64,000 bases of DNA from Escherichia coli (GTDB taxonomy: Bacteria > Pseudomonadota > Gammaproteobacteria > Enterobacterales > Enterobacteriaceae): NCBI RefSeq assembly GCF_024700885.2, contig NZ_CP117016.1; one strand, 5' to 3'. The position numbers and the translations under genes were made by a program. Position 1 is the first letter of the stretch, and the number at the start of each line of letters is the position of its first letter. Positions 7,998 through 40,421 of the stretch are shown here, in pieces. The notes below the pieces were generated by a model. It searched no databases. It was not told the origin of the DNA and saw only the letters and a program-made list of their open reading frames with translations.

Positions 7998-8012
7998 TTA
8001 CCTTTCAGGTAA
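7998..8012. promoter_or_regulatory. operator TTACCTTTCAGGTAA
   Basis: Perfect TTACC-N5-GGTAA palindrome. Overlaps a +strand TAGACA(7971)-N17-GATATT(7994) promoter-like pair. Confidence 0.55.
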
Positions 8013-8088
8013 TTCGCAAAACGTGCTGGATAGCAAACAAATTATTTGGTACTGTATAAATATACAGTTATTGCATGGAGAAGATAAG

Positions 8089-8346
8089 ATGCAGCAGTAT
8101 CACTATCCACTGGAAGACGGATTTACCGAAAGGATTCACACGCCGGGAGGCGTCAGGTCACTGGTGGATGGATCGCACTTGATGAAATTACTCCGGGATC
8201 TCGATAAGGATGGATTTAATGTCGATGGCCCACTTGCCGAACTGACTGCACTGATTAACTACGTCACCAGCTCACAGATGTCTATGCAGGATCTGCAAAC
8301 ACATCTCGACTATTGTGCCGAACAATTACGAAAACAAACTACATAA
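8089..8346 (+). CDS. hypothetical protein (opposite-strand moron, 85 aa)
   Basis: ATG 8089 is preceded by GGAGAAG. The ORF-track start 7966 lies inside the regulatory region and was rejected. No recognisable motifs. Confidence 0.5.
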   Translation: MQQYHYPLEDGFTERIHTPGGVRSLVDGSHLMKLLRDLDKDGFNVDGPLAELTALINYVTSSQMSMQDLQTHLDYCAEQLRKQTT

Positions 8347-8351
8347 AGAAA

Positions 8352-8369
8352 AGGCCGCGAAAGCGGCCT
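8352..8369 (-). terminator. rho-independent terminator ending the ejection-protein operon
   Basis: AGGCCGC-gaaa-GCGGCCT, followed on the minus strand by TTTTCTTT. Confidence 0.6.
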
Positions 8370-8377
8370 GTGACATG

Positions 8378-8674
8378 TCACGTTCCTTTTCTGAATGATA
8401 GCCATTCGAAAAATGATGACATTCCACCGCAGACAATAGCAAAGATGATCCCACCAAAGAAGAGAAGGCCAGCCTGCCACCACTCCCACCGCCATACATC
8501 CACAGCGCCAACCATACCAACAATCGCTCCAACAAATGGAATATAGCTCACGATGAAAGCGATGGGGGCTGCAATTATCCAGTGCAATCCCCACCATGAT
8601 TCAAGCCCAGCCATAATTGCTGCCAACTGAAAAAGACCAACGACGATATAAACAATGAATCCTATAGCTTGCAT
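8378..8674 (-). CDS. small integral membrane protein (3 TM, Trp-rich)
   Basis: 98 aa, almost entirely hydrophobic. AGGTGA RBS. Last gene of the leftward virion operon. Confidence 0.6.
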   Translation of the reverse strand: MQAIGFIVYIVVGLFQLAAIMAGLESWWGLHWIIAAPIAFIVSYIPFVGAIVGMVGAVDVWRWEWWQAGLLFFGGIIFAIVCGGMSSFFEWLSFRKGT

Positions 8675-8686
8675 GTAGTCACCTAT

Positions 8687-8860
8687 TTACCCAGTAAAAA
8701 TAAGAGGCCTCCCCTCAATAAGGCTTGCAACAAGAACTACTCCCTGCACAACAAAGATGAACCAGCAAATAGCTTGAGTCTGAGGGTTAAGAAAATATTT
8801 GTAGCGGTCAATAAATAACAATCCACCAGAAATTATCACACTCAAAATAATTAAAAACAC
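8687..8860 (-). CDS. small membrane protein (57 aa, GTG start), not in the ORF track
   Basis: Hand translation: (M)FLIILSVIISGGLLFIDRYKYFLNPQTQAICWFIFVVQGVVLVASLIEGRPLIFTG. AAGGAAG lies 4 nt upstream of the GTG. It fills the gap between two genes. Confidence 0.4.
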   Translation of the reverse strand: MFLIILSVIISGGLLFIDRYKYFLNPQTQAICWFIFVVQGVVLVASLIEGRPLIFTG

Positions 8861-8869
8861 AACACTTCC

Positions 8870-11344
8870 TTATTGCGGAGTGACATCCTGAGGTCGCCAC
8901 CAGTATGTCTGGTTAAACTCTTTCTTCGAACGTTGCTCCATTTTACGCAAATAGCCTGGTGAAAAATACTCCTGCATCTGGTTAAAGATCATGTGATCGA
9001 GAGCCGCCTTCAAGTACCAGAGATTCGCACCAGGCATCAAACCTTTCCCCAGCTTCACCAGATCACCACCAGTCTGCTCACTCTTCCCTTCCACAGCATT
9101 TAACGGTATGCCCTGAGCAATCTTCACTACGTCATCAACCAGACCAGCTACCGGGCCAAGCATCGACGCCAGCGCGCCGCTTCCGTACCTAGTGTGATCT
9201 GACAATAAAAAGTCACCGTACAGGCCAAGACCACCACCTTTCAGTAGAGCACCAAGCCAGAATTTTGCGGCATCTTCTCCTGTCATCTCTCGAGGATTAC
9301 GACCAGACGCAAGGTCGTTAAGTTGCTGCGACAAAGCGCCAAGAATGGTCGTACTGGCAATAAACGTCGCAATATATGCCGCACGCCCACCAGCAGACGG
9401 CATACCCATAGCGCGTGACCAGTGACGCATAACAACCGAGATAGGGAACGATTTAAACAGGAAAACACTTCTCGTTAATTCACCTTTCCATGTTCCACGC
9501 TGAATACCAGAACCGGTTATCAGTTGCTCACGTGCTCCCGGTGTAATAACAGCCATATCAACTTCTTCAGTTACGGCACCGAGCAGTTTACGCATTGCCT
9601 CAAATTTCACGCGTTCAGGCTCACCAAGATGTTTAACTGCTGAATCAGGGATACGCATAATGCTTTCCGGCGTCAGCATCGTATTATTACCGTTCCCCCA
9701 GTCCTCCTGTTGCGCCAACTTCCATACGCTCCAGTCTGTGTCAGTAATCCCTTTGCTTTTCAGGATACGAAAATCAGAGTCATCAAGGCTACGAAGGTCT
9801 GGTGTCCGTGACACTACTTCTCCCAGGCTTCCCATCATGGTTACGCCATAGGCGCGCTTGTGCGCATCTGACCATGCTGTAAGCCCACTGGCACGCATTA
9901 CCGCCGTTGCCGCCCAACGAGACACTGACGGCCCCATATTATCCATCGCCCAGCGGTTAACGCTGCCAAGTAGAGATTCCATCGCCAGACCAGCGCGGCG
10001 CGCCCGCACAAGTTCTGTACGGTTCGTTGGGTCCATAGCTTCAAGCTGGTTGCGGAATAACTGGTTCATTGGAAGGTTGGTAACCTTCGCAGACAGATAC
10101 ATGGTTCCAAGATCAGAGAACGATGACAGCAACGCGGATCCGAGCCTGCTGGCAACCAGCCAGTTGCGGATATTGTCAGACCATCGCGCGATGTGCGGAT
10201 TCGCTACAGGCTGTGTCTTTCCGGAAATAAAGTTGTACAGATTCTCTGTGTTGTTCGCCAGCCGCTCGACTTTACCGGTTTTACTCGGGTTAGCTGTTGC
10301 CGTTTCTGCCTTAACCTGATCAAGAAGGGAGCGGAAAACATGATCGGGGTTTGGACCATATGTTTCCACCAGAGCAATATCTTTACTGATACCTTCCAGG
10401 TGACCGACCATGATTTCCCATAGAGAGCGATCGCCATAAAGTTGTTGATATTGGAGATAGGAATCTGCATCTTTGAAATGTATCTGTCGTGATGCATTAC
10501 CACGGTTAGCACGTGCGCCGGAAATTCGCATTCCGGTATCAGTAAGCTTATTCAGCCCACCAGTAGCGATCGTGTTATAAGCCTCTCCAAGAAATGCAGA
10601 CAACTCGGCATCGTTCATCAGTTGTCCATCGGCTCTGGTATAATATTTGCGATCCAGCTTACCTATAACATCGCTAACCCACTTATCCTTTGATACCGCC
10701 CCAACCTTTTCCATAGAATGATGTTGAGGGATCCCCCAGTTTTCGAGATAGCCAATGTCCCCACCAGCATCATTAAACCGGCGGCGCAGCAGCTCTGCAA
10801 CTTCTCTCCACGCTTTAGCACCTTTTCTTGCTTTAGCATTGCCAGTATTTTGCCCCCGCATTTCATATACCAGGTCACGTACGCCCGCTTCATCTTCAAA
10901 CAGGCCAAAAAAGCGAGGATCAACTGCTTCAAATGCCTCCTGCAATTGACTCAATGCATAATCACGAGTGGCTTTTGTTCTGGATTCAACAGAGAGGAAA
11001 TTCGATTTACCGTCTGCATTAAAAGCAATAGTACGGTTAAGAGCGCCAAGTTTCCCATCAGCCCCTTGATAGCTATTGATAAATTTATCCAATCTCTGAC
11101 GTGCGGCTATAGTGAGAGCCACACGACGTTTCTTTAATGCCGCTTCTCGCTGTAATTCTTCAGATGCCAATTGTGCTGCACGATACAACCGTTCTGATTC
11201 GGAAAGTTGTCGCCACGACATCGGGTCATCACGAGCAATGGAGCGCATATTTCGATAAATGCGGTCTTCAATGTTCTGTATTTCTCGCGCCGTTAACGTG
11301 CGCTGCGCCGCCTGCTGGACCGCTTGTATACATTCCTGTCTCAT
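8870..11344 (-). CDS. large internal virion (ejection) protein
   Basis: 824 aa. Position and size fit the third of three large proteins downstream of the tail-tube genes in this phage group. Hydrophobic Gly/Ala-rich C-terminal segments. Confidence 0.6.
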   Translation of the reverse strand: MRQECIQAVQQAAQRTLTAREIQNIEDRIYRNMRSIARDDPMSWRQLSESERLYRAAQLASEELQREAALKKRRVALTIAARQRLDKFINSYQGADGKLGALNRTIAFNADGKSNFLSVESRTKATRDYALSQLQEAFEAVDPRFFGLFEDEAGVRDLVYEMRGQNTGNAKARKGAKAWREVAELLRRRFNDAGGDIGYLENWGIPQHHSMEKVGAVSKDKWVSDVIGKLDRKYYTRADGQLMNDAELSAFLGEAYNTIATGGLNKLTDTGMRISGARANRGNASRQIHFKDADSYLQYQQLYGDRSLWEIMVGHLEGISKDIALVETYGPNPDHVFRSLLDQVKAETATANPSKTGKVERLANNTENLYNFISGKTQPVANPHIARWSDNIRNWLVASRLGSALLSSFSDLGTMYLSAKVTNLPMNQLFRNQLEAMDPTNRTELVRARRAGLAMESLLGSVNRWAMDNMGPSVSRWAATAVMRASGLTAWSDAHKRAYGVTMMGSLGEVVSRTPDLRSLDDSDFRILKSKGITDTDWSVWKLAQQEDWGNGNNTMLTPESIMRIPDSAVKHLGEPERVKFEAMRKLLGAVTEEVDMAVITPGAREQLITGSGIQRGTWKGELTRSVFLFKSFPISVVMRHWSRAMGMPSAGGRAAYIATFIASTTILGALSQQLNDLASGRNPREMTGEDAAKFWLGALLKGGGLGLYGDFLLSDHTRYGSGALASMLGPVAGLVDDVVKIAQGIPLNAVEGKSEQTGGDLVKLGKGLMPGANLWYLKAALDHMIFNQMQEYFSPGYLRKMEQRSKKEFNQTYWWRPQDVTPQ

Positions 11345-11349
11345 TTAAT

Positions 11350-13152
11350 TTAACCTCTCAAGAAACACGCCACAGCAACATCAAACAGGCTGGAATCCTG
11401 TATTGCCTGCTCACTTTCCCTGTTCGCTTCATCCAGTACTTCTCGCGCGCTGCGCGATTGTGGATTACCATCATCATCCAGCACGGTGATTATCATGTCA
11501 GGTGATTCAAGCAGCGAGTCTTCAGCTATGCGAAGATCAATACCTCCCGCCTGATCCGCCATCATTTTTTGTTCTGCCTGTTGCAATATTTTACCAGGCT
11601 CAAAAGGAGCTACTTCGTCTGGCGTCCTGACCTCTGCTGTTTTATAGAATGAAACAGCCTGAGCATTAAGTTCACTTTCTGCCTGCTGTCTCCGAGCCAG
11701 TTCTGCTCGAGCTTCAAAAAACTGACCGCCAGGCTCGTGCGGTGCCAACGCGTTACGGGAAAATTCCAGGCGTTCTTGTGCCTGCCGGATTCGTTGATCA
11801 ATATCGCGAAGTCTGGCCTGTTTATCTGATCGAGCACGAGACAAAGCTTTACCGCTACCGGTTGGCTCTTCTGCAAGAATTTGTGCCCGCTGTTCAGTGA
11901 GATTTTCAATAATTCGTTGGCTATTAGCGATTTCAGACTGGTAAACCTGTCTATCGCCACGCGGCAAAAGCTGCGCGGCCTGTTCTTCAAGCAACCGATT
12001 TTCTATAGCGCGCGCCGTTACTCCATCATCTACAGATGACAGAGCCTCATTAACTGCCTGAGACAGCAGACTCTTGCGCCCAGGAATTTCACTGAAAGAT
12101 GCAGACTCAACAATGCTGGCAACGTCTACAGGTCTCCCCTGGCTAACATCAGACATAGCTTTTCGCAGAGCCTGAATGTGAGAATTGCGCGAAAGCACGT
12201 TGATCGGCACGCCGGGCGCAATATCAATTTCAGCATGATGAGCGGCATTCGCCGCCAGTGCAGCATCGATATCAACTGGTGAAAAATTTGGTGCGTTTGT
12301 AGACTCGCCGCGAGAGTTAATAAATCTGCCGACACCACCAAACGCCACCCCAAGAACAGCATCAATAGCAATTGACTGTCGATCCAACACATCATACTGG
12401 TTAGCCATTTCGCTATAGCCACCATCACGAAGCGTTTTTGCAGTAAGCCCACGCTGTGCCATACCGAACGCAATATTTGTACCTGCGGCATAGGCAATAT
12501 CTGGCGTTGCACGTACTGCTGTTGCTGCGGCGCGTCGCACTGAACTCTCACCCGTCCGCGCAAGCTGAGCCGCCACACCTTCCGCCAGCGCACCACCAGC
12601 ACGTAACCCGAGGCTCATAGGGATCAGTGTTCCGACACCAGCAGTAATGCCCTGCACTAATCCCGCTTCCTGCGCCGTCCTGAAATCAACACCCTGTGCT
12701 GTCAGCCGTTCAAACTCAGAAAAACCCTGTAGCGAAGTTACCGCCGCTGCACCTCCGACAGGACCACCGAGCGTTGTACCGACAACAGCCTGCCCGCCCA
12801 TATCGAACAACCCATAAAGAACCTGCCCGGCGGTTCCGGTTGTCGCGGCATCAGGCGTCAGCCGCTTAACCTGCTGCTCTGCTAGTTTTCTCTGCTCGGC
12901 AATGTATGAAACTGAAGTGTCATTGAGCGAGGTGTTTTCGTTAACAAACTGAGCAATCGGGGATACGATTTTATCCATCCCTGCCCAGAGCAACTGATCT
13001 GGCTTTGCCACCAGCCCGGAGTACAAACCAGACAATGCCGCTCCTACAGCATTGTCGAAAAAACCAACATCGCTGTTAAAGCCAGCTGGATTTGATGCTG
13101 CTTCGTCAAGCTGCTGATTCTGGTTTACTGGATTAAGGCCAAAGTAACTCAT
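11350..13152 (-). CDS. internal virion (ejection) protein, Gly/Ala-rich
   Basis: 600 aa. N-terminal half has TM-like Gly/Ala stretches; C-terminal half is a charged coiled coil. Confidence 0.6.
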
Positions 13153-19436: not shown

Positions 19437-20041
19437 CAGGACAACCTCGCAATGGTAAACTCGTCAACCGGTGGCTGTGGTTCCTGTGATTCATTCTGGC
19501 TATGCGAGCCAGCACTAAGAATCACGCGATTGTACATATTGAGGGCAAACGTACCGAGGTCTGCATTCCCAGTCAGCGCCATGTTAATAGCTGCCGCAAG
19601 ACGCCAGGCCAACGCCTCCATAAAAATGGCATCAAACATGTTCACATCTGTAACACGAGAGACATACTTGAGCCATGCCTGAGGCTGGTCTGTGTAGATC
19701 AACTTTCCTGTTCCGTTGGTGTCTACACCTACTTCGTACTGAACGCGCATTGCTGCTGTTGGATTGCGTACACCAGGAAGCATAATTTCAGTAATGCGCA
19801 GACAATCGGACGGGTACTGATACGCATATTCCCAGTCAGGCGGTAGATTGCTCGTATCTGCAAGCGCCACGCGTTTGGTAGCAAAGTTCCAGTCAAAATC
19901 AGAAAGCACAGCATCACGGCAGGCCTCAAAGTGCAGCGAACATTCCCCCGCTTCCTTGCTGGCTTCCGTCAGGCTGTTAATGCTGCGGCTATTGCCAATA
20001 TTGGACAGCGCACGATTGCAGATCTCTACTACAGAGGCCAT
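19436..20041 (-). CDS. tail tubular protein A-like (adaptor/gatekeeper)
   Basis: 201 aa. N-terminus MASVVEICNRALSNIG...FDWNFA is typical of T7 gp11-class proteins. ATGA-type coupling with the neighbouring gene. Confidence 0.65.
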   Translation of the reverse strand: MASVVEICNRALSNIGNSRSINSLTEASKEAGECSLHFEACRDAVLSDFDWNFATKRVALADTSNLPPDWEYAYQYPSDCLRITEIMLPGVRNPTAAMRVQYEVGVDTNGTGKLIYTDQPQAWLKYVSRVTDVNMFDAIFMEALAWRLAAAINMALTGNADLGTFALNMYNRVILSAGSHSQNESQEPQPPVDEFTIARLS

Positions 20042-25142: not shown

Positions 25143-25232
25143 ATCAATGACTCCGTACGCAATTAAATTATTACCAATTTAACCACATATGATTTATTTA
25201 TCGTAGATAGTTGACATTTAACGCACAAATTA

Positions 25233-25247
25233 TTACCTTTAAGGTAA
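25233..25247. promoter_or_regulatory. operator TTACCTTTAAGGTAA with adjacent TTGACA (25211-25216)
   Basis: Perfect TTACC-N5-GGTAA. A consensus -35 lies 17 nt upstream on the + strand. Confidence 0.55.
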
Positions 25248-25569: not shown

Positions 25570-25646
25570 GTGGCATTAGCTCAGCTGGACAGAGCAACCG
25601 CCTTCTAAGCGGTTGGTCGCAGGTTCGAATCCTGCATGCCACGCCA
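25570..25646 (+). tRNA. tRNA-Arg (anticodon UCU, reads AGA)
   Basis: Hand-folded cloverleaf: acceptor GTGGCAT/ATGCCAC, D-arm GCTC/GAGC, anticodon arm ACCGC-CTTCTAA-GCGGT, T-arm GCAGG-TTCGAAT-CCTGC, discriminator G, encoded CCA. Confidence 0.9.
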
Positions 25647-26375: not shown

Positions 26376-27851
26376 TTAAGCATAGGGATCGTAATCTGTA
26401 ATGGCCTTGCCTTGCTGGTTCTGCTGACCTGGAATTCGCAGACGCTTCGACACAGGGAACGCAAACGTCAGCAGTAGCGCATCGCCTTTACCCGGCGAAC
26501 GCCCAAGCCGCTCCTTGATATCCTCCTTCGGTTCGATAACGATTTTACCGTCCACGCGAACTTTGTACTCTGCCGCCGACAGGTCGTCTGCAGTTTCCTG
26601 GTCATCCAGCATGCCGCCCAGCCTCAGCCATGTCTTGCATGAGTTGAACATCTCCCCGCGCTTGTTGAGCATCTGAGGGTCAGTTGACGCGCCACCGAAC
26701 GGAACAAGTTGCCATGTGCGCCCCCAGCCGTCACCGATTGACTTCAGGCCAGTACCGTAACCGAAGTCGATGAACACCGCGTCGGCCTGATACTGGTCTT
26801 CAAAGTCAGCGATACGCTTCGCCATAATCAGATCGTCGGTGGTCTTGTTGCCAGTCCACAGCACCTTACTGTGCAGCCCCTGCCGCAGGTATATCACCGC
26901 GTCATCAACGCCGGAGTATGCCGGGTCAACTCCGATTATCACCGGAGCATGTGCCACCTGCGCAGCGGTTACCACCCGTTTCATTGCCTCGTCAGTAAGA
27001 CCGGTAGGGATAAACTGCAATTCAGATGCATCAGGGAATATGCCACGCACACGGATTTTAACGAAGTCGCTGTCTTCCCCGTAGTCATCAACCCATTTCT
27101 GCAACTGCTGTTTGTTAGTGCCTTCCACCGTCCGGCTGTCAATCTGCGCAGTTTTCCAGCGGTGTTTATATTTGCGGAAACATTCTCGGAAACGTCCGGT
27201 ATTACGCGTCGGGTTTCCGAACGCCACCCAGATAATCTCAGTGTCTTCGTCCGTAAGCGCACCCTCGGCAACTTCCCACACCAGATCCGCAATGTTCGAC
27301 GCTTCATCGAATACCACGATGATACGTTTGCGCTCGTTGTGTAGTCCGGCGAACGCCTCAGTATTGTGCTCAGACCAGGGGATTGCGTCAGCTCGCCACC
27401 GCTTGTCGTGCCCAGGATCATTGCTGTACATCGCGGTAGCGGTACAGGTGAACCAGTCTTTCGTGATAGCAAGGTTCGACCACTTGATAATTTCCGGCCA
27501 GGTCTTCGTTCGTAGCTGGTTGTCGGTGTTGGCGGTCACCACGATCTTACAATCCTCGCAAGTGGACATGCCCCAGTTGATCAGCATTGAGATGAATGCG
27601 GATTTACCAATACCGTGACCAGAAGCGCGTGCCAGCATAAGCGGCTGATAGCGCGTCTCTGGATTCTGCAGGTGATCACGTATCTCTCGGAACGCATCAG
27701 CCTGCCACTGACGTGGGCCGGTGGCATGTGCCAGTTCAGTCCCCTCTTCCCCCCACGGGAACGCATAGAGGGCATAGCCAAGCGGATCGTGAGTGAACCC
27801 TGCAATATCCTCGATCAACTGCTCTTCAGGAGATAACGCTGTATCTGTCAC
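26376..27851 (-). CDS. terminase large subunit
   Basis: 491 aa with Walker A-like ASGHGIGKS. Overlaps the terS stop. Confidence 0.9.
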   Translation of the reverse strand: MTDTALSPEEQLIEDIAGFTHDPLGYALYAFPWGEEGTELAHATGPRQWQADAFREIRDHLQNPETRYQPLMLARASGHGIGKSAFISMLINWGMSTCEDCKIVVTANTDNQLRTKTWPEIIKWSNLAITKDWFTCTATAMYSNDPGHDKRWRADAIPWSEHNTEAFAGLHNERKRIIVVFDEASNIADLVWEVAEGALTDEDTEIIWVAFGNPTRNTGRFRECFRKYKHRWKTAQIDSRTVEGTNKQQLQKWVDDYGEDSDFVKIRVRGIFPDASELQFIPTGLTDEAMKRVVTAAQVAHAPVIIGVDPAYSGVDDAVIYLRQGLHSKVLWTGNKTTDDLIMAKRIADFEDQYQADAVFIDFGYGTGLKSIGDGWGRTWQLVPFGGASTDPQMLNKRGEMFNSCKTWLRLGGMLDDQETADDLSAAEYKVRVDGKIVIEPKEDIKERLGRSPGKGDALLLTFAFPVSKRLRIPGQQNQQGKAITDYDPYA

Positions 27852-28444
27852 TGATTACCATCCTGACGTTCTTTGAGTCGCTTCCTGGCTGCTGCTATGC
27901 GATCAGCAATTGTCACATTCACATTAACATCCAGACGTTCTTTGAACGCGTTGACATCAACATGCTTACCAATCAGCTCAAGGTTCTTCACCTTGTCAGG
28001 CCATTTAATTTTTTTGAGGATTGTCTCTATCGAATCCTCGTTCATGTTCATGATGGTCGATGACAGATCAAAGCCACTAAGCGTAGTGCGCCAGATTTTC
28101 GGCCACTCGCGGATTGGCTTAAGGCTCCCATCGTCGTTGAGGATGTCGATCACATCCATCTGGTCGATCTCCACCAGGCGCATAAGAACGTAATCGGCAC
28201 TGACGCGCATTCGTTTGTTGCGCTCCTCCATCAGCTCGGCAATCCGTTTTTGAATGCGTTCATCGCGCATCATGACACTGGCTTTAACTGCCGCTGTATT
28301 TGGGGAGAATCCTGCGTTAATCGCTGCCTGAGTCTGGTTTTCAGGCGTTTTGATGTATGACTGGCAATAAGCCTCCTGCATTGCTGTTAGTGGCTTAAAT
28401 TGCGTTGATTTGCGTTTATAGGTTTTAGGTTCAGCAGGCATCAT
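27848..28444 (-). CDS. terminase small subunit
   Basis: N-terminal HTH-like region (AMQEAYCQSYIKTPENQTQAAINAGFSPNTAAVKA). Start moved to ATG 28444 (MMPAEPK), which has GGTGG upstream. Confidence 0.75.
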   Translation of the reverse strand: MMPAEPKTYKRKSTQFKPLTAMQEAYCQSYIKTPENQTQAAINAGFSPNTAAVKASVMMRDERIQKRIAELMEERNKRMRVSADYVLMRLVEIDQMDVIDILNDDGSLKPIREWPKIWRTTLSGFDLSSTIMNMNEDSIETILKKIKWPDKVKNLELIGKHVDVNAFKERLDVNVNVTIADRIAAARKRLKERQDGNQ

Positions 28445-28452
28445 AACCACCG

Positions 28453-28483
28453 TGGTAATAGTTACCGTTTTGGTAATAGTACC
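28453..28483. repeat. two direct copies of tGGTAATAGT(T)ACC, each an inverted pair of operator half-sites
   Basis: 28453-28466 and 28471-28483, between a terminator and the terS start. Confidence 0.6.
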
Positions 28484-28484
28484 A

Positions 28485-28513
28485 TGCAAAACAAAGCCGC
28501 CATAGTTGGCGGC
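28485..28513 (-). terminator. rho-independent terminator between the regulator-like gene and terS
   Basis: Minus strand reads GCCGCC-aactat-GGCGGC-TTTGTTTTG. Confidence 0.55.
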
Positions 28514-28562
28514 AGTATTCAAAACCCATCAAATTCATCATGCATAATCTACTCGTGACATG

Positions 28563-28904
28563 TCACACTATTAATTTCGTTTCATGCCAGCCTTTAGTCA
28601 CCCAGCATTGCGAGTCACCATTACACGGGCATGAATTAACTGGAACTCTCCCGCCGCACTTACCGCAACGTTTTCTGCTGATCGATTTTATACGCCCGCG
28701 CACGCGTGCATCATCCTGGCGGATCAGTAACGCTATATACTCACCAAATTCGTAAGGCGCACGCCCGGGGCGACGCGTGGCACAGTTACGCTCCAGCATT
28801 TCAATTTCCTGAGCATCAAGCACAATTTCCAGCTTACGCACACCAGATGCAGCTTGTCTGGCTCTCTGAGCGGCTTTGCGCTCTGCTGCTGATTTAGCCA
28901 TCAA
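28563..28904 (-). CDS. putative DNA-binding regulator (basic N-terminus plus C-terminal Cys cluster), candidate late-gene regulator
   Basis: 113 aa: MMAKSAAERKAAQRARQAASGVRKLEIVLDAQEIEMLE..., then CGKCGG-x8-CPC-x5-C. It is the last early-operon gene before the packaging genes. Confidence 0.45.
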   Translation of the reverse strand: MMAKSAAERKAAQRARQAASGVRKLEIVLDAQEIEMLERNCATRRPGRAPYEFGEYIALLIRQDDARVRGRIKSISRKRCGKCGGRVPVNSCPCNGDSQCWVTKGWHETKLIV

Positions 28905-31869: not shown

Positions 31870-32214
31870 TCAGAACTCTTCGATTTTCCATCCGCCACCT
31901 GCTTTCTTTGGCTTAACCGTTACCCCGATGATTCGGAACGGATACTGATCTGCGGCGATTTTGGTTTTCACCCTGGCGTCGTCTGTCCAGAAACCTTTCA
32001 CTTCGTGCAGTTCCATCTCTCCGGTGGCGAGCATCACAGCAAAATCTGGCGTATAGAACGTGTTGTCAGCTAACCGCAGCTTGATACCCTCGAATCGATA
32101 CCAGGCGATTTCCCCTGCACGTTTACGCTGCTCAAGGTGCTGGCAATACGCAGATTCTGTTTTGTTCATCTGGCCTGTTTTGAGTCGACCAAGAGCCTGC
32201 ATCTGTTTTCTCAT
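31870..32214 (-). CDS. DUF1064-like protein (RecU/resolvase-like fold family)
   Basis: 114 aa. The pattern SAYCQHLE...YTPDF...ELHEVKG... fits my recollection of DUF1064. Confidence 0.55.
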   Translation of the reverse strand: MRKQMQALGRLKTGQMNKTESAYCQHLEQRKRAGEIAWYRFEGIKLRLADNTFYTPDFAVMLATGEMELHEVKGFWTDDARVKTKIAADQYPFRIIGVTVKPKKAGGGWKIEEF

Positions 32215-32217
32215 GAT

Positions 32218-32232
32218 TTACCTCTGAGGTAA
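32218..32232. promoter_or_regulatory. operator TTACCTCTGAGGTAA
   Basis: Perfect TTACC-N5-GGTAA, 4 nt upstream of start codon 32214. It contains that gene's GAGG RBS. Confidence 0.5.
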
Positions 32233-32279
32233 TTAAAAACCACATAAGACACGAAATCAATAGAGTTTAGAATATTTTA

Positions 32280-32294
32280 TTACCTGATGGGTAA
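32280..32294. promoter_or_regulatory. operator TTACCTGATGGGTAA
   Basis: Perfect TTACC-N5-GGTAA. A minus-strand TTGATT-N17-TTTAAT promoter-like pair lies between it and 32218-32232. Confidence 0.5.
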
Positions 32295-33117: not shown

Positions 33118-33929
33118 AAGAAATCCTCCCATGCTTCAGGGCTGTTCCAGTGCGGAACGTTGTTATCAGGTAATGTTGATTGCTTCTGTCTGCTAATCTG
33201 CAGCCGCCTTGCCAGCTTCTGCTCCCACTGTGCCTGATGGTATGCCTTACCCTCAGCCATCCAGTAAATTCTGAACTCTGCAAGTTCCTGTGCCGTTGGC
33301 AGACTGTCCAGGTAGATCCCCTGCAATGAGCTTTTCCGAAGAAAGTCATCTGATGGCTGCCATTGTTCATGCATGACAAATTTTCCTAATTGCCCTGGTC
33401 CACCAGGAGGAACAAAGTTATTCATCACGGCGTTGTTTGCTCCGGGGTCATGAGGCACAGAATCCCCGCTTTTTGTCCTGCTCTCCCTCTCTTGGTTAAA
33501 TGACTGGTTATATGACTGGTTCTGGATCCCGTTTTTGGGATCATTCAACATCCCGTTTTTGGGATCATTCAACATCCCGTTTTTGGGTATATTCCCGTTT
33601 TCGGGAACATTACCGTTTTCGGGTTCATTACGTCCTTCTAGGTTGCCTTTAATGTTCCCTTTTTTGGTTATATTAAGAGAGAAAACCCGCACTCTTTTCG
33701 TCGCTCCCTTTCTCTCTCCGGTATCTGAAATAAGCCCCATTTTCATGAGCGATATAAGCCCGGCCTGCACGGTTTTTTTATTCAGGCAAGTGTCTTTAAC
33801 GAGGCGTTCTATGCTGGGGTAGCAGAGGTTATATTCATCGGCTCTGTCAGCCATCGAGAGCAGTATGAGCTTTAATGACGAGCTACCTGGATCTGTCTCC
33901 CAGGCCCAATCTGTTGCATGTCTGCTCAT
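33114..33929 (-). CDS. lambda O-like replication initiator (N-terminal winged-HTH), contains the origin iterons
   Basis: 271 aa. N-terminal DNA-binding-like region and an internal NG-rich repeat encoded by the iterons. Immediately upstream of the P-like gene. Confidence 0.7.
   Translation of the reverse strand: MSRHATDWAWETDPGSSSLKLILLSMADRADEYNLCYPSIERLVKDTCLNKKTVQAGLISLMKMGLISDTGERKGATKRVRVFSLNITKKGNIKGNLEGRNEPENGNVPENGNIPKNGMLNDPKNGMLNDPKNGIQNQSYNQSFNQERESRTKSGDSVPHDPGANNAVMNNFVPPGGPGQLGKFVMHEQWQPSDDFLRKSSLQGIYLDSLPTAQELAEFRIYWMAEGKAYHQAQWEQKLARRLQISRQKQSTLPDNNVPHWNSPEAWEDFL
33528..33623. repeat. origin iterons: five copies of (C/A)CCGTTTT(T/C)GGG spaced 24, 24, 18, 18 bp
   Basis: Cores at 33528, 33552, 33576, 33594 and 33612, inside the O-like gene as in ori-lambda. 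Confidence 0.7.
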
Positions 33930-34145: not shown

Positions 34146-34225
34146 GGTAAGCCCTGTTATTAGTATTGGGATTACGGTCATTTTGTGCTGACACAAAAAA
34201 AAGATCAACCACATTTGGTTTTTTA

Positions 34226-34240
34226 TTACCCTTAAGGTGC
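34226..34240. promoter_or_regulatory. imperfect operator TTACCCTTAAGGTGC
   Basis: One half-site degenerate. Adjacent to the AACCACATTTGGTT box at 34207-34220. Confidence 0.4.
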
Positions 34241-34295: not shown

Positions 34296-34526
34296 TCATG
34301 AGTAGAAGAAGTATGCCAATTCTGCTTTTGAGCGCAGCCATTGTCTTGTTTTACAGGCTTTAAAAAGCCCATTCATCAATACCTTACCTGGCATTTTGCG
34401 CTTACCTGTTAAGTGAGTCTGGATATAGTGACTCGTCGTTCCGGCTTCCTGTGCGAAGGCTTCACGCTCATCCGGAGTAAGTGCAAGCCAGTGCTTTTTG
34501 AAATCGAAATGTCCGTTATCGCTCAT
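34296..34526 (-). CDS. Cro-like HTH regulator, first gene of the leftward early operon
   Basis: 76 aa with HTH candidate AQEAGTTSHYIQTHLTG. Divergent from the repressor gene across the tripartite operator. Confidence 0.6.
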   Translation of the reverse strand: MSDNGHFDFKKHWLALTPDEREAFAQEAGTTSHYIQTHLTGKRKMPGKVLMNGLFKACKTRQWLRSKAELAYFFYS

Positions 34527-34562
34527 AGCTATTGCCTGATATTTATTTCAGATAATAAATAT

Positions 34563-34625
34563 TCACCCATAAGGTAACAAAAATCAAGGATAGTTACCCA
34601 TGAGGTGCATTTACCTGTTGGGTAA
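34563..34625. promoter_or_regulatory. tripartite operator region between the cro-like and repressor genes
   Basis: Three sites: TCACCCATAAGGTAA (34563), TTACCCATGAGGTGC (34594), TTACCTGTTGGGTAA (34611). A minus-strand TTGATT(34587-34582)-N17-GAATAT overlaps the first site. Confidence 0.65.
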
Positions 34626-34680
34626 TATTGCTTTAAATTGAATCATCTTCTGATTCATATATGAGGCGATTTTCCAGAAA

Positions 34681-35265
34681 ATGAAAAGTATCCAAGACGT
34701 CCGCAGGCAAAATCTCAACGACTTGATCGACCGTGAATTCAATGGTGTTCAGACGCGGATGGCTGAAAAACTTGGAACTCAGGCAAATCTGGTAAACCGC
34801 TGGGCTCTTGGCAAGAAGGTTATCGGCGACCAGGTTGCGCGAAAAATTGAAGCTGCCGCCAATAAACCACGTAACTGGCTTGATATCGATCGCTCGCTTT
34901 CTCAGGAGGGTTTTCAGCCTGTCGGACCAAGCGACATTGGTCAGCTGGCGGCTCACAACCTGGAACGCTGGATGAGCGAAAGCCGCGACCTTTCAACACA
35001 GGGAAAACTTCACCGCGCATCCGGCGTCGCCCAAGTGACAATCAGCCGCCTGTTAAACAATGAGGTCAGCGTTTCCATTTCCACCCTGGAGAATGTTGCA
35101 TCTGCATTCGGACGTCACGGATATGAACTACTGATTCACCCGCACGACCCTGCAACTATCAACTATGACCGCTCGCGCTACGCATTGTTACCTGAAACCG
35201 AGAAAGCAAAGATCGAAAGTTACATTGAATTTGTCATCAACCAGAACGAAAAAAACAAACAATAA
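34681..35265 (+). CDS. prophage repressor with two tandem XRE-type HTH domains, no S24 peptidase domain
   Basis: 194 aa. HTH1 is TRMAEKLGTQANLVNRWALGKK; HTH2 is KLHRASGVAQVTISRLLNNE. No Ala-Gly / Ser-Lys autocleavage module is visible. Confidence 0.75.
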   Translation: MKSIQDVRRQNLNDLIDREFNGVQTRMAEKLGTQANLVNRWALGKKVIGDQVARKIEAAANKPRNWLDIDRSLSQEGFQPVGPSDIGQLAAHNLERWMSESRDLSTQGKLHRASGVAQVTISRLLNNEVSVSISTLENVASAFGRHGYELLIHPHDPATINYDRSRYALLPETEKAKIESYIEFVINQNEKNKQ

Positions 35266-35322: not shown

Positions 35323-35399
35323 TTACCTTGCAGGTAATTTTTTCAACTCATACCTATTGACATCAAACCAAATACGCATAATCATTACCTCAACGGTAA
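35323..35399 (+). promoter_or_regulatory. rightward early promoter flanked by two operators
   Basis: TTACCTTGCAGGTAA (35323-35337); TTGACA (35357-35362)-N17-AATCAT (35380-35385); TTACCTCAACGGTAA (35385-35399). Confidence 0.55.
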
Positions 35400-35418
35400 C
35401 AAGCTGAGGTAACAAGTT

Positions 35419-35571
35419 ATGCAGTGGAAAATCATCAACGGTTGGTACTGCGTTACTGCATGCGGATTCATGAGCTGGAAGTTCCGCACCTTACAGGAAG
35501 GCATTAAGTGGGCTTTCGTCAGCAAAGAAGCTCGCGATGTGGCCAACGATAACGAGATATGGGAGGGCTGA
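35419..35571 (+). CDS. possible 50-aa ORF (not in the ORF track)
   Basis: Hand translation MQWKIINGWYCVTACGFMSWKFRTLQEGIKWAFVSKEARDVANDNEIWEG. It is the first ORF after the rightward promoter. No clear RBS. Confidence 0.3.
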   Translation: MQWKIINGWYCVTACGFMSWKFRTLQEGIKWAFVSKEARDVANDNEIWEG

Positions 35572-35573
35572 TA

Positions 35574-36691: not shown

Positions 36692-37569
36692 GCAATGATA
36701 TCGCAATCACATCACAACCAGGCGCAACTGTAGGTACTGCTGCGGCAATCTTCAGCCCGGAGGGCATGAATCAACTGGTGCGTTTCGCGGAGTTGATGTC
36801 ACAAAGCAAAGCGACTGTACCGAAACATCTTGAAGGCAAACCTGCCGATTGTCTGGCGGTGACCATGCAGGCGGCACAGTGGGGAATGAACCCTTTCGCC
36901 GTGGCGCAGAAAACGCATGTGGTAAACGGAACGTTAGGCTACGAAGCACAGTTGGTAAACGCGGTCGTATCCTCTTCCAGCCTGCTAGCGACACGCCTGA
37001 ATTATCGCTGGAGCGGTGACTGGTCGAATGTTAACGGCAAAACAGATAAATCACCGAATCTGACGGTAACTGTGTCAGCAGTTCTTAAAGGAGAAGCAGA
37101 ACCCCGTGAGCTTACCATCAGTATGGCGCAAGCCGGAGTGCGTAACTCTCCATTGTGGGAACAGGATCCGCGCCAGCAGCTTGCCTATCTTTGCACGAAA
37201 CGATGGGCTCGCCTGCACGCTCCTGATGTACTTCTCGGTGTTTACACCCCTGACGAATTACAGGAAACGGCACCGCGCGTTGAGCGAGACATTACTCCGC
37301 AAACGACTACTGCTGCGGGAATGAACAGTCTGATCAACGCTAAACCAGTGAAAAAGCCTGATGAGCAAACGCGTAAAGCGGATAGCCGTGATCCAGAAGA
37401 AATGCTGATGGCCTTTACCAGCGCAGCGATGAATTACAGCACTGTCTCCGAACTGGATAAGGCTTACAAATACATTGCACAAAAACTTTCAGATGATGAC
37501 GAACTGCTGGCAAAAGCCACCGACGTTTACAGCGTTCGTCGGGAAGAATTAAACGAAACATCTATGTAA
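36688..37569 (+). CDS. recT: RecT-family single-strand annealing protein
   Basis: 293 aa. QLVRFAELMSQSKATVPKHLEGKPADCLAVTMQAAQWGMNPFAVAQKTHVVNGTLGYEAQL is typical of RecT. Confidence 0.85.
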   Translation: MSNDIAITSQPGATVGTAAAIFSPEGMNQLVRFAELMSQSKATVPKHLEGKPADCLAVTMQAAQWGMNPFAVAQKTHVVNGTLGYEAQLVNAVVSSSSLLATRLNYRWSGDWSNVNGKTDKSPNLTVTVSAVLKGEAEPRELTISMAQAGVRNSPLWEQDPRQQLAYLCTKRWARLHAPDVLLGVYTPDELQETAPRVERDITPQTTTAAGMNSLINAKPVKKPDEQTRKADSRDPEEMLMAFTSAAMNYSTVSELDKAYKYIAQKLSDDDELLAKATDVYSVRREELNETSM

Positions 37570-37618
37570 CCACCACCGCGGCGCCACGCGCGCCGCACTG
37601 CAACCAAGAGAGGTATTT

Positions 37619-37867
37619 ATGAAAGGTGCATTAGGTAAGAAGGAACTCCTGGCGGTGGTGCCACTGTCATGGAGCACTATCGACCGTATGGAGCGCGCAG
37701 GGGAATTTCCTAAACGCTGGTATATCACCGATAAACGCTGCGCATGGAACCGTGATGAAGTTGAGCGTTGGCTTGATGAACGTCAGGCAGCAAGCCCGGC
37801 AGAGTTCCAGGGTAAAAAACCTCCTGTTCAGCAACGTGTATATCGTCCTGTGAGCAACGCGGCATGA
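37619..37867 (+). CDS. AlpA-family HTH protein (excisionase/regulator)
   Basis: 82 aa; the pattern ...STIDRMERAGEFPKR...W...EVERWL fits AlpA/Xis-type MerR-like HTH. Confidence 0.65.
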   Translation: MKGALGKKELLAVVPLSWSTIDRMERAGEFPKRWYITDKRCAWNRDEVERWLDERQAASPAEFQGKKPPVQQRVYRPVSNAA

Positions 37868-38009
37868 GTGTGCTGCTAAGGCACTGGAGCAAATGGTCAG
37901 GATGGTACTTATTCCTGGCCTCTGTTTCAGCATGGCTTTATCTGCTGGCATTAATTTTCAGAGAGGGTTGGATTAAGTGAGAAAGTTAAGCCGACTTGAA
38001 AAATATCAC

Positions 38010-38276
38010 ATGAACAAGGTTTCAATGCGCAGCCCTTCAAAGGTTGTTGCCGTTACTCCTGCGGCGATAGAGATCGAAAAACGCGCGATTGAAAGAGAGA
38101 AAAAAGGGCAGTTCCGCATTGCCGCCCACCTTTGGCTTCAGTGTATGGATGTTGCTTCTGGTGATGTTGAACGTGCAAGGATCGCGGTTCGCAGGGACCA
38201 ATGTATCACAAAAGGTAACGGCCTTCGCCGTGGCGACTATAGCGGCATAGGATGTTGTGGGGTGGTTTATGACTAA
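38010..38276 (+). CDS. PerC/ANR-like small regulator
   Basis: IEKRAIEREKKGQFRIAAHLWLQCMDV...ERARIAVRRDQCI follows the LE..G..R.AA..W...ER..I..RR.QC pattern I recall for PerC/Pch proteins. Start uncertain (GTG 37977 or ATG 38010). Confidence 0.4.
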   Translation: MNKVSMRSPSKVVAVTPAAIEIEKRAIEREKKGQFRIAAHLWLQCMDVASGDVERARIAVRRDQCITKGNGLRRGDYSGIGCCGVVYD

Positions 38277-38919
38277 GAAATACACACTAATCTATGCAGA
38301 TCCACCCTGGGCATACCGGGACAAAGCCACAGATGGTAATCGCGGTGCCGGTTTTAAATATCCGGTTATGAGTGTGCTGGATATCTGCCGCCTTCCTGTG
38401 TGGGATTTGGCCGGTGAAAACTGTCTGTTGGCCATGTGGTGGGTGCCAACACAACCACTCGAAGCACTAAAAGTTGTTGAAGCCTGGGGATTCCGTCTGA
38501 TGACCATGAAGGGCTTCACGTGGATAAAATGTGGTAGTCGACAACCAGATAAACTGGTTATGGGGATGGGACACATGACTCGCGCCAACAGTGAAGATTG
38601 CCTGTTTGCGGTAAAGGGAAAACTACCTCCGCGCATTAATGCAGGTATCGTTCAGTCATTTACCGCACCGCGGCTTGAGCATTCAAGAAAACCAGATGTC
38701 GTTCGTGAAAAACTTGTGCAATTGTTAGGCGATGTTTCTCGCATTGAACTGTTCGCCCGCCAGTCGTCTCATGGCTTCGATGTTTGGGGTAATCAGTGCG
38801 AAGACCCGGCAGTGCAACTACACCCAGGATACGCGTTGGATATTGCCGGATTAACAAATGCATTCAGCAATGCTCCGCTGTCACCAACAGACAACCAGGG
38901 GCGGGAGCGTGCAGCATGA
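38269..38919 (+). CDS. MT-A70-family N6-adenine DNA methyltransferase (orphan)
   Basis: DPPW catalytic motif (IYADPPWAY). ATG 38269 is preceded by GGGGTGG. Confidence 0.8.
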   Translation: MTKKYTLIYADPPWAYRDKATDGNRGAGFKYPVMSVLDICRLPVWDLAGENCLLAMWWVPTQPLEALKVVEAWGFRLMTMKGFTWIKCGSRQPDKLVMGMGHMTRANSEDCLFAVKGKLPPRINAGIVQSFTAPRLEHSRKPDVVREKLVQLLGDVSRIELFARQSSHGFDVWGNQCEDPAVQLHPGYALDIAGLTNAFSNAPLSPTDNQGRERAA

Positions 38920-39110
38920 ACAGGGCATCACCAGCAGATTTAAGGAAATGCCTTGAAACTGCAAACATGCTTGCACACAGCGGGATCAGGTTTGTTCCAA
39001 TTCCCGCTGTCACTGATGCTGAATTTGCAACACTGTCAGCAATATTCACAGATAAAATTGAATCACTGGCAGCAGAAGCCGAGATGGAAGAAAATCAGCA
39101 GAACTATTAA
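38916..39110 (+). CDS. hypothetical small protein
   Basis: 64 aa from ATG 38916, which overlaps the methylase stop (ATGA). Confidence 0.5.
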   Translation: MNRASPADLRKCLETANMLAHSGIRFVPIPAVTDAEFATLSAIFTDKIESLAAEAEMEENQQNY

Positions 39111-39113
39111 ACG

Positions 39114-40364
39114 TTATTCCCCCGCCATCCACTTCTCAAACTTCGACGGGGAGAACGGAATCAGATCCGTATGCTCCCCGTTAATCCAGGAATCAATCAT
39201 ATCGGCCCACTGCTGCAACATGTAGGCGCGCTGTCTGGCGTATTCCGCTTTGTTATATACGGCGCGCACACCTTTCTGCTCATGTGCCAGAGCCTTTTCA
39301 ATCCAGTCTGAAGGATAACCAGCCTCATGCAACAACGTACTGGCTGTACGGCGCATATCGTGTACGGTGAAGTCCTGAATATGCTCACCATCTTCATTTA
39401 TTATTTTCACCGTTCTGTCGATCAGAGAGTTCAGCGCGGCATTAGATAATGGCTTCCGGAAATTGTAACGACCAGGAACCAGATATTCACTTCCACCAGC
39501 GCACATCTGCAACCCGACCAATATATCCTGAACCTGTTTAGGCAGGTAAATAACATGCGCCCGGCTTCCCTTCATGCGGTCTGAAGGAATTGTCCATGTC
39601 CATTTTTTAAAATCTATTTCATCCCACGTTGCATTGGTGAATTCGCCCTTACGAACCATAGTGATAAGCACCAGTTTTAAAGCCATTTTCATAGTGCCCA
39701 TAGCACCAATGGCATCCAACGTGCGGAAGAACAGGCCAATTTCTTCTGGTGTCAGTGTTCGCTCTCGTGGTTTAAATATGGCGATAGACGAAGGTTTAAT
39801 GTCAGCCGCAGGATTAAACAAACCATGACCACGGTCATTGGCGTGACGGTATACGCTGCTGATGATCTCCCTGGCCTGTACTGCTGTTGCCCGACCACCG
39901 CGTTCGACAATCCGGTCACACAAATCACGAACCATCGATGTGGTAATTTCAGCCATCATTTTGTTGCCAAGAACCGGAAGTATGTCACGGTCGATCACCG
40001 CCTGCTTCATTGCGCGGGTACTGTCAGCCAGGATGACGTGTTTCATATAACTGTCGGTATGTACCGCAAACGTCTCGGCACCACGAATTTTTTTGATACC
40101 GTCACGTTTAGCCGCAGCCGGCGACTGGCCTGCTTTAAGCAGCTTCTTTGCAGCAATCAGTTCTTCTCGCGCTTCTGCCAGGCTGATACCGTCACGCCCA
40201 TACTGCCCGATTACCAGTGTTTCGCGGCGACCGTTGATACGGTAGTCATAGCGAAACGAGACCGTGCCTGACGTAAGCACAGCTACATACAGCCCGTCAC
40301 GATCGGAGACCTTGTACAGTTTGTCCTGCGGCTTGAGGTTTTTTAATTTTGTATCGGTAAGCAC
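39114..40364 (-). CDS. int: tyrosine integrase, P4-like
   Basis: 416 aa. N-terminal MLTDTKLKNLKP..LYKVSD..GLYV arm-binding-type domain. C-terminal catalytic residues R...HDMRRT...H...Y. Confidence 0.9.
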   Translation of the reverse strand: MLTDTKLKNLKPQDKLYKVSDRDGLYVAVLTSGTVSFRYDYRINGRRETLVIGQYGRDGISLAEAREELIAAKKLLKAGQSPAAAKRDGIKKIRGAETFAVHTDSYMKHVILADSTRAMKQAVIDRDILPVLGNKMMAEITTSMVRDLCDRIVERGGRATAVQAREIISSVYRHANDRGHGLFNPAADIKPSSIAIFKPRERTLTPEEIGLFFRTLDAIGAMGTMKMALKLVLITMVRKGEFTNATWDEIDFKKWTWTIPSDRMKGSRAHVIYLPKQVQDILVGLQMCAGGSEYLVPGRYNFRKPLSNAALNSLIDRTVKIINEDGEHIQDFTVHDMRRTASTLLHEAGYPSDWIEKALAHEQKGVRAVYNKAEYARQRAYMLQQWADMIDSWINGEHTDLIPFSPSKFEKWMAGE

Positions 40365-40406
40365 AATTCACCCGTATAGAAACCATTTTCATGACGGTAT
40401 GAGAGT

Positions 40407-40421
40407 ATACCTTTAAGGTAA
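40407..40421. promoter_or_regulatory. imperfect operator ATACCTTTAAGGTAA nested in a larger palindrome upstream of int
   Basis: Flanked by TGACGGTAT (40392-40400) and ATACCGTCA (40421-40429). Confidence 0.4.

Follow-up and report, generated by a model that had tools for sequence, protein, structure and literature searches.

TTACC-N5-GGTAA palindromes scattered through a phiV10-like Escherichia coli prophage are probably operators of its own repressor

Are the repressor operators of a temperate phage confined to its immunity region, and if they are not, which protein reads the outlying copies? This question is raised by a 64,000-nt stretch of Escherichia coli contig NZ_CP117016.1 (assembly GCF_024700885.2), here called the window, which carries a 39-kb prophage about 97% identical to Escherichia phage phiV10 and its relatives; phiV10 and epsilon15 are podoviruses of the genus Uetakevirus. 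An initial annotation made from the sequence alone had proposed that operators of the form TTACC-N5-GGTAA are spread over the whole prophage. Our analysis agrees, and the comparative sequence evidence indicates that the palindromes are probably the operator set of the prophage's own repressor, Rep (34681 to 35265). The cro-like protein encoded next to it probably uses the same boxes.

An exact search of the window identified eight perfect palindromes, at 7998, 25233, 28462, 32218, 32280, 34611, 35323 and 35385. The initial annotation had counted seven, all of which are real, and had missed the one at 28462. In 100 dinucleotide-preserving shuffles of the whole 64 kb, the mean number of perfect sites was 0.04, the same value that had been estimated earlier, and none of the shuffles reached eight. 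When one mismatch was allowed, the window gave 12 matches against 1.02 expected. Of the four additions, 28444, 34563 and 40407 belong to the prophage; the fourth, 55792, lies in a coding region of the host and fits a chance match. Two further sites, at 34226 and 34594, depart from the motif at two bases of one half-site, which reads GGTGC. We also scanned the window with a position weight matrix trained on 57 perfect sites from diverged relatives, and its 13 top hits are exactly the eight perfect and five variant sites. The four variants proposed earlier (34226, 34563, 34594 and 40407) are all among them, with 34226 and 34594 ranking 12th and 13th, and 55792 comes 14th. The extension to ATTACC or GGTAAT that had been described holds on at least one side of all eight perfect sites and on both sides of three.

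All 13 sites lie inside the two copies of the att core that delimit the prophage:

1539 to 1555, minus strand: att core copy with one mismatch to the published attP core ATTGAGTGGGAATGATT (PMC9782041); prophage end at the lysis cassette
40555 to 40571, minus strand: perfect att core copy at the 3' end of guaA; prophage end at int

They also lie without exception in noncoding gaps between genes. Two of them, 28444 and 28462, fall within a TTG-started open reading frame (ORF), and the terS start of epsilon15 aligns with an ATG just downstream of both. As a host control, we searched 125 kb of E. coli DNA (two 50-kb chromosome pieces and the host flanks of the window) and found no perfect and four one-mismatch sites; the 39-kb prophage has 8 perfect sites, or 11 when up to one mismatch is allowed. 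The (A)TTACC-N5-GGTAA(T) motif is both strongly enriched and confined to intergenic DNA. The shuffles, the weight-matrix ranking and the host control exclude chance or a host-wide motif. A full-text literature search with the motif string returned nothing useful.

We compared the prophage with about 170 related genomes and prophage loci, among them 80 IMG/VR prophages encoding an identical Rep; the first IMG/VR scan returned only loci with a 100% identical Rep. Throughout this set, the half-sites do not vary and paired sites keep their 62-bp spacing. The same motif in the same positional classes is present in phiV10, epsilon15, SPC32H, Enterobacter phage Tyrion and Klebsiella phage BUCT711, as well as in three prophages whose Rep is 52 to 65% identical to that of the window. 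Among the 80 identical-Rep prophages, both half-sites are kept in 75 to 80 of 80 at each of the five classes examined. Scattered operators are moreover already annotated in epsilon15, whose record (NC_004775) carries seven protein_bind features labeled "repressor / lysogeny" with sequences ATTACC-N5-GGTAAT:

epsilon15 12 to 27: site before terS
epsilon15 2931 to 2947: site before the portal operon
epsilon15 19895 to 19911: site between gp19 (ant) and the tail fiber gene
epsilon15 32479, 32554 and 32616: sites at PL
epsilon15 35906: site after a replication gene

The epsilon15 genome has 11 perfect sites, and all 11 are in the 6.6% of the genome that is intergenic.

Two genes for candidate binding proteins flank the densest group of sites:

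34681 to 35265, plus strand: rep, a 194-amino-acid repressor of the SPC32H Rep type (phmmer against PDB 5d50_A, E=4e-42)
34296 to 34526, minus strand: cro-like gene divergent from rep, 76 amino acids, matching phrog_35 ("transcriptional repressor")

Rep is 100% identical to the phiV10 repressor and 42% identical to both SPC32H Rep and the epsilon15 repressor, with the match to 5d50_A spanning residues 1 to 190. A Pfam scan of Rep returned only N-terminal helix-turn-helix (HTH) families and no S24 peptidase or autocleavage domain. Its ANLVNRW helix is invariant in five diverged phages, and the C-terminal block is conserved too; this conserved part is the Ant-binding block. Secondary sources on SPC32H Rep describe DNA-binding, dimerization and p53-like tetramerization domains, a tetramer that sits on palindromic sites with two domain pairs about 100 Å apart, and an antirepressor, Ant, that takes this tetramer apart (PMC9986798; bioRxiv 10.1101/2021.09.07.459249, also PMC9638917). 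PMC9986798 says of the SPC32H Rep repression mechanism that it "has not been extensively characterized." The cro-like protein of the window is 75% identical to epsilon15 gp39, with the GTTSHYIQTHLTG stretch invariant.

Conservation of the HTH cannot tell Rep from the cro-like protein, because the latter is the better conserved of the two. The half-sites do not covary with the recognition helix either: Reps down to 52% identity, including those with NLVSRW or NLISRW, all keep TTACC-N5-GGTAA. Since the half-sites are identical for all Reps, we used the 5-bp spacers for the covariation test, grouping the loci by Rep type:

epsilon15-type Rep: 41 loci, 328 sites, spacer G+C 12%, 17 distinct spacers, flank G+C 38%
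Klebsiella-type Rep: 39 loci, 271 sites, spacer G+C 5%, 15 distinct spacers, flank G+C 38%
phiV10-type Rep: 80 loci, 513 sites, spacer G+C 35%, 54 distinct spacers, flank G+C 34%

When distinct spacers were counted, both the epsilon15-type (Fisher, p=0.006) and the Klebsiella-type loci (p=1e-4) differed from the phiV10-type loci, and a separate spacer count in seven genomes gave p=2e-5. Between these spacer groups, the cro-like protein differs far less than Rep does. Spacer composition follows the Rep type and therefore favors Rep as the protein constraining the sites, although both proteins may bind them.

Spacing between sites is also constrained. Neighboring perfect sites of phiV10-type loci are 62 bp apart in 149 of 152 cases, and the corresponding spacings in epsilon15-type and Klebsiella-type loci are 17, 62 to 63 or 76 bp. 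One possibility is that the cro-like protein, rather than Rep, binds the sites outside the immunity region and lowers early and accessory promoters during lytic growth. Cro and CI of lambdoid phages share operators, which speaks for this idea, as do the phrog_35 match, the 57 to 84% identity of the cro-like protein across motif-sharing phages and the invariance of its predicted recognition stretch. The spacers, however, track the strongly bimodal Rep types while the cro-like protein varies much less, and the 62-bp pairs suit a two-unit tetrameric Rep, as these sources describe the SPC32H protein, better than a 76-amino-acid Cro (PMC9986798; bioRxiv 10.1101/2021.09.07.459249). We therefore regard sole binding by the cro-like protein as unlikely and retain Rep as the probable reader of the boxes.

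The spacers of the upstream operators of such pairs vary in their own right. Among the 80 identical-Rep prophages, the equivalents of 35323 and 32280 have 14 and 20 spacer sequences, with 20 to 50% non-consensus bases per column, and the flanking columns mostly have 0 to 10%. In prophages that are otherwise nearly identical (L006 to L085 and L089 to L168 in our collection), hypervariability at these operators takes in the spacers and a few flanking bases but never the half-sites. This pattern could reflect relaxed constraint, diversifying selection or a mutational hot spot.

How would the boxes act on transcription? Putative promoter positions were taken from cross-genome conservation, and only promoter matches conserved across genomes were used, because a generic scan did not rise above shuffles. 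Eight boxes lie in or near the immunity region and at the early promoters (no strand is assigned to any box):

34611 to 34625: perfect site of OR, the one closest to rep, overlapping the region of the likely rep promoter
34594 to 34608: middle OR site with half-site GGTGC; 17 bp from 34611 and 31 bp from 34563
34563 to 34577: OR site with a TCACC variant half-site, covering the cro promoter after its conserved -35 (TTGATT) and ahead of the -10
35323 to 35337: upstream operator of the PL equivalent, centered at about -62; 62-bp spacing conserved
35385 to 35399: downstream operator of the PL equivalent, covering about -7 to +8 and centered near 0
32280 to 32294: upstream operator of a second early promoter, at about -62; after the terminator of the replication genes
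32218 to 32232: downstream operator of the second early promoter, overlapping -10/+1; holds the ribosome-binding site of the DUF1064 gene
34226 to 34240: post-cro variant box with GGTGC, just behind the cro terminator (34274 to 34255)

Between the divergent rep and cro-like genes, there are three operators, the lambda-type arrangement that the initial annotation had recognized. The 34611 site is identical in 80 of 80 prophages with the same Rep. At the middle site the half-sites, GGTGC included, are invariant in 80 loci, and the spacer alone varies. For cro, the scan gave a promoter-like match on the minus strand at 34580 to 34552. A conserved TTGATT is followed after 4 nt by the 34563 box, which fills the spacer of the cro promoter. 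Two palindromes lie in the leaders here, as a separate observation: CTGATATTTATTTCAG in the cro leader (34536 to 34551) and GAATCA-N5-TGATTC in the rep leader (34643 to 34659), the latter preceded by CATATATG. Both are kept in phiV10-type but not in epsilon15-type relatives.

The two sites said to bracket the rightward early promoter do so at a fixed distance of 62 bp and mark the PL equivalent. Reading on from the rep terminator, the order is box 35323, a T-run, TTGACA (35357), 17 nt, AATCAT and box 35385. The last base of this -10 is the first of the box, the TTGACA-17-AATCAT match (35357 to 35385) is the best promoter-like match of the region, and the geometry is kept in seven of eight genomes. 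The pair reported around the DUF1064 gene start proved to be the same two-operator promoter module. There the order is box 32280, TTGATT, 17 nt, TTTAAT and box 32218; within the latter, GAGG stands four bases before the box end, and the gene, whose product matches Pfam DUF1064, starts at the ATG at 32214. The terminator that precedes this module is annotated at the equivalent place in phiV10. The lone 34226 box has one-mismatch equivalents in phiV10, Tyrion, BUCT711 and prophage locus L088. At PL, PR, the second early promoter and the tRNA promoter, the distance from a conserved -35 element to the box is fixed, and direct repression of these four units is well supported by geometry.

A different arrangement is found before the terminase gene:

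28444 to 28476: terS doublet, two boxes 18 bp apart (28462 perfect, 28444 with one mismatch), between a terminator and the terS start

The doublet starts 19 bp after the terminator stem (28513 to 28496), ends at the ATG, and is also present in epsilon15, phiV10, Tyrion and prophage locus L087. As listed, the terS ORF runs from a TTG at 28522 (27848 to 28522), as annotated for phiV10p01 too, and covers both operators as well as the terminator. The epsilon15 comparison and the Pfam match point instead to the ATG at about 28441 to 28444 as the real start; read from 28441, the product matches Pfam Terminase_2. Upstream, a promoter-like GTGACA-18-CATGAT (minus strand, 28566 to 28537) lies at the end of the gene for a conserved 112-amino-acid regulator (28563 to 28904, phrog_536). 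Beyond it come a terminator within about 20 nt, the operator doublet and terS, a layout reminiscent of lambda PR'-tR', where Q is encoded just upstream. With a mean pLDDT of 57.6, the regulator's AlphaFold model is too poor to classify, and our impression, no firmer than that, is of a ribbon-helix-helix protein with a zinc-binding tail.

This layout suggests another explanation, which could coexist with promoter repression by Rep, namely that the boxes serve mainly as roadblocks or insulators that halt read-through polymerase, like the "stoperators" of mycobacteriophage L5. The terS doublet and 34226 each come straight after a terminator, in a gap too short for a promoter; a terminator also precedes the upstream box at the second early promoter, and terminase expression would presumably harm a lysogen. 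Palindromic sites, however, cannot act one-way as L5 stoperators do, and four promoters (PL, PR, the second early one and that of the tRNA unit) have a box overlapping -10/+1 at a fixed, conserved distance from the -35, as in classical promoter occlusion. A roadblock is plausible at terS, but as the main function of the boxes it is improbable, and operators read by Rep remain our preferred interpretation.

The remaining boxes accompany accessory genes, the structural operons and the integrase gene:

25233 to 25247: tRNA/portal box, in the gap that separates the portal operon from the divergent tRNA-Arg unit, lying over the -10 of a plus-strand promoter
25570 to 25646, plus strand: tRNA-Arg(UCU) (ARAGORN; Rfam tRNA), first gene of the plus-strand unit past the 25233 box
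7998 to 8012: ant/tailspike box, upstream of both the LexA-covered ant promoter (by about 60 bp) and the putative start site of the tailspike gene (by about 67 bp)
8052 to 8067, plus strand: perfect LexA box CTGTATAAATATACAG, 21 bp before the ant ATG
8089 to 8346, plus strand: ant, antirepressor, 87% identical to SPC32H Ant (PDB 5d50_E, E=3e-47)
40407 to 40421: int box, GGTAT variant, 43 bp upstream of int and within a stable leader hairpin
39114 to 40364, minus strand: int, tyrosine integrase (Pfam Arm-DNA-bind_3, Phage_int_M, Phage_integrase)

At the tRNA unit, TTGACA (25211 to 25216) is followed by a 16-nt gap to the TTACC of the box. The TTGAC and this gap are conserved in eight genomes, and TACCNT is therefore the likely -10 of a plus-strand promoter, which would drive tRNA-Arg(UCU) and a small conserved gene. 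The initial annotation had placed a box over the -10/+1 region of a plus-strand promoter at 7998, 25233 and 35385. That description fits the last two; at 7998, the promoter found by the scan (plus strand, 7971 to 7999) is not conserved in epsilon15-type relatives and was not relied on.

The gene downstream of 7998 had been called a moron, an assignment that we correct: it encodes the antirepressor Ant, and a LexA box precedes ant also in epsilon15, SPC32H, Tyrion and BUCT711. The centers of the 7998 box and the LexA box are about 55 bp apart. Because it lies about 60 bp before the ant start site, the 7998 box has the same position as the upstream operators elsewhere. Ant and Rep contrast in their likeness to the SPC32H counterparts, at 87% and 42% identity, respectively.

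A conserved variant box does precede int, as reported. Its GGTAT is always present and creates a -10-like hexamer, TATACT, which GTGACG precedes by 15 nt; across 13 variants, the spacer varies but not the half-sites. The int leader (40385 to 40430, minus strand) folds into a hairpin of -16 kcal/mol (z=-4.6) that contains the box, and the epsilon15 record places an RNase III site and an integrase binding site at the equivalent stretch. Several functions may thus overlap here. This hairpin and the epsilon15 RNase III site would be in keeping with palindromes that act as RNA, as hairpins or RNase III processing sites in leaders. For the boxes as a class, several results argue otherwise. The folds predicted for single boxes are weak (-3.5 to -5.9 kcal/mol) and in most cases do not surpass those of shuffled sequences, and many boxes lie upstream of start sites or between divergent genes. 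The half-sites are invariant without covariation while the "loop" varies, and the outer-stem changes of the int hairpin in relatives are uncompensated. An Rfam search of the window finds tRNA only. A role as RNA is hence very unlikely, and we return to protein binding by Rep.

At the late regions, a second palindrome accompanies the boxes. Read in the late direction, the sequence CATATGTGGTT, one half of AACCA-N4-TGGTT, comes 29 to 41 nt after the box. This holds for the portal and tailspike regions and, among relatives, for the lysis region as well. The sequence is followed after 7 to 10 nt by a -10-like hexamer, AATAAT, TAGAAT or TGTGTATAAT. With at most one mismatch, CATATGTGGTT has five matches in the window against 1.2 expected, and the element lies at the following positions:

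7958 to 7971, 25181 to 25194, 3525 to 3538 and 34207 to 34220: AACCA-N4-TGGTT element, with a half-element at 32238 to 32248
3311, 20924 and 24742 in relative L001, and 2991 and 24754 in relative L002: AACCA-N4-TGGTT element

In this prophage, the lysis-region CATATGTGGTT element is kept without a Rep box. The element carries no annotation in the epsilon15 record and looks like a family-specific late promoter or regulator site. This bears on the earlier suggestion that the repressor directly controls structural, moron, tRNA and integrase units. Control is supported by geometry for the tRNA unit and is probable for int. It is unproven for the tailspike and portal operons, where the box lies off the likely promoter, with the CATATGTGGTT element 29 to 41 nt downstream. 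The accompanying contrast with a cascade-based shut-off is not supported either; an activator or antiterminator cascade is still compatible with the structural operons, and the late genes may still need such a factor.

Several observations weigh against Rep as the direct repressor of every boxed unit. The boxes at the tailspike, portal and (in relatives) lysis regions are 65 to 80 bp from the putative late start sites, which is not a classical repressing position. The lysis-region box of relatives is absent from this prophage by weight-matrix scan, in a place where a different conversion cassette sits. In those relatives, a box stands 25 to 41 bp before serotype-conversion genes, and simple repression does not explain it, because these genes should be expressed in lysogens. 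The generic sigma-70 promoter scan is not enriched over shuffles, and the cro-like protein is, as noted, better conserved than Rep.

The phage consists of many short transcription units with a box at nearly every unit boundary. This distribution might instead be read as marking junctions for module exchange, since the boxes do sit at module boundaries. In that case, however, flanks and spacer should be conserved as well, and only the two 5-bp half-sites are invariant. Alternatively, the boxes could bind another phage protein, such as the 112-amino-acid regulator or an AlpA- or PerC-like protein, and several small regulators are indeed conserved across the genus. The triple cluster exactly between rep and cro and the pair just after rep are nevertheless what an immunity repressor would be expected to show. 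We consider both of these ideas extremely improbable.

With Rep as the probable ligand, we infer four kinds of placement. In a promoter sandwich, one operator would cover -10/+1 with a partner 62 bp upstream (35323/35385 and 32280/32218); one Rep tetramer could clamp such a pair, because it carries two DNA-binding units. A three-site OR would act between rep and cro (34563, 34594 and 34611, spaced 31 and 17 bp). Single boxes would cover the -10 of accessory promoters, that of the tRNA-Arg unit (25233) and probably Pint (40407), where direct repression of int is probable. Finally, boxes behind a terminator and before a start codon (the terS doublet and 34226) would probably stop read-through. 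The 7998 box would hold the upstream-partner position relative to the LexA-covered ant promoter. In a lysogen, Rep would hold all boxed units off simultaneously. Upon DNA damage, LexA would be removed and Ant made, and Ant would dismantle the Rep tetramers, releasing all units together.

A bolder proposal can be put forward only tentatively, and we think it rather less probable than not as a whole. One p53-like tetrameric repressor might hold at least eight units, including terminase, tRNA and int, through 62-bp sandwich pairs. The immunity class would be set by the non-contacted 5-bp spacer and not by the half-sites, which repressors of only 42% identity share unchanged, with epsilon15-type and Klebsiella-type Reps needing A/T spacers and the phiV10 type accepting any, and AACCA-N4-TGGTT would mark activator- or antiterminator-dependent late promoters. 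If true, spacer-set immunity predicts one-way cross-immunity.

With this motif, the regulatory map of a very common prophage family can be annotated by a simple rule. The repressor family is encoded in at least 300 IMG/VR stretches, and relatives are present in E. coli, Salmonella, Klebsiella, Enterobacter, Citrobacter and Serratia. Both phiV10 and SPC32H are in use as reporter phages to detect pathogens (PMC6630733; PMC7472331), and for engineering them it matters which units a single repressor holds off.

As to the layout of the prophage, the window is inverted relative to phiV10. The minus strand carries the late genes, the cro-like gene, the replication genes and int, and the plus strand carries rep, the recombination operon, ant and the tRNA-Arg unit. 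A guaA-sized ORF occupies 40557 to 42134, and the int-guaA arrangement recurs in a relative. Between the tailspike and lysis genes, a cassette at 3400 to 4800 is unlike the phiV10 O-acetyltransferase and encodes a 374-amino-acid protein with only a weak hexapeptide-repeat match. Within the DnaT-like replication initiator gene, three adjoining tandem-repeat arrays (33493 to 33631; periods 12, 24 and 18) include a 24-bp unit in 2.6 copies that are 100% identical; by analogy with lambda O, they are probably origin iterons.

How does this system compare with known ones? The repressors of 434 and P22 (c2) use indirect readout of central operator bases that they do not contact. The sites studied here resemble theirs, and it is a resemblance only, in that the spacer is not fixed and its A/T content is repressor specific for epsilon15-type and Klebsiella-type Reps; they differ in that the phiV10-type Rep shows almost no spacer constraint.

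C1 of P1 is a repressor with dispersed operators. Like it and gp71 of L5/L1, the prophage has one repressor and many sites in short intergenic gaps beyond the immunity region, and mycobacteriophage repressors are known to bind multiple operators (PMC1934351). The sites of L5 gp71 and P1 C1 are asymmetric, those of L5 being orientation dependent, whereas the sites in the window are perfect inverted repeats with 62-bp pairing, and the L5 and P1 repressors are unrelated to Rep by architecture.

Lambda shares the tripartite operator between divergent repressor and cro genes and the additional operators at the leftward promoter beyond the repressor gene; the PL equivalent is 712 bp from OR, and looping as between lambda OL and OR is conceivable. 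Unlike lambda, this system depends on an antirepressor, and its Rep lacks an S24 domain; its PL carries two operators at a spacing of 62 bp instead of three adjoining ones, and operators occur outside OL and OR, at 7998, 25233, 28444/28462, 32218/32280, 34226 and 40407.

The Rep-Ant switch of SPC32H (PDB 5d4z and 5d50) is closer, with homologues of both Rep and Ant, a LexA box before ant, no autocleavage domain and the same boxes at the same places; it differs in that Rep is 42% identical, though Ant is 87% identical.

The epsilon15 consensus is reportedly given as ATTACCWDWWNGGTAAT in the paper of Kropinski (2007). The phiV10 GenBank record has no repressor-site features. Epsilon15 itself has the same motif at equivalent scattered positions, and its terS, portal, ant/tailspike, PL and post-replication classes are all present in the window. 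The differences are that 7 of its 11 perfect sites, and no OR site, are annotated in its record, that its spacers are A/T rich (G+C about 12%, compared with about 35% in this phiV10-type prophage) and that the repressors are 42% identical. The finding of scattered operators is sound and essentially already known from the epsilon15 annotation; its biological novelty is small because those sites were annotated before. The parts worth experiment are the 62-bp pairs, the repressor-type spacer rule and the second palindrome at the late regions.

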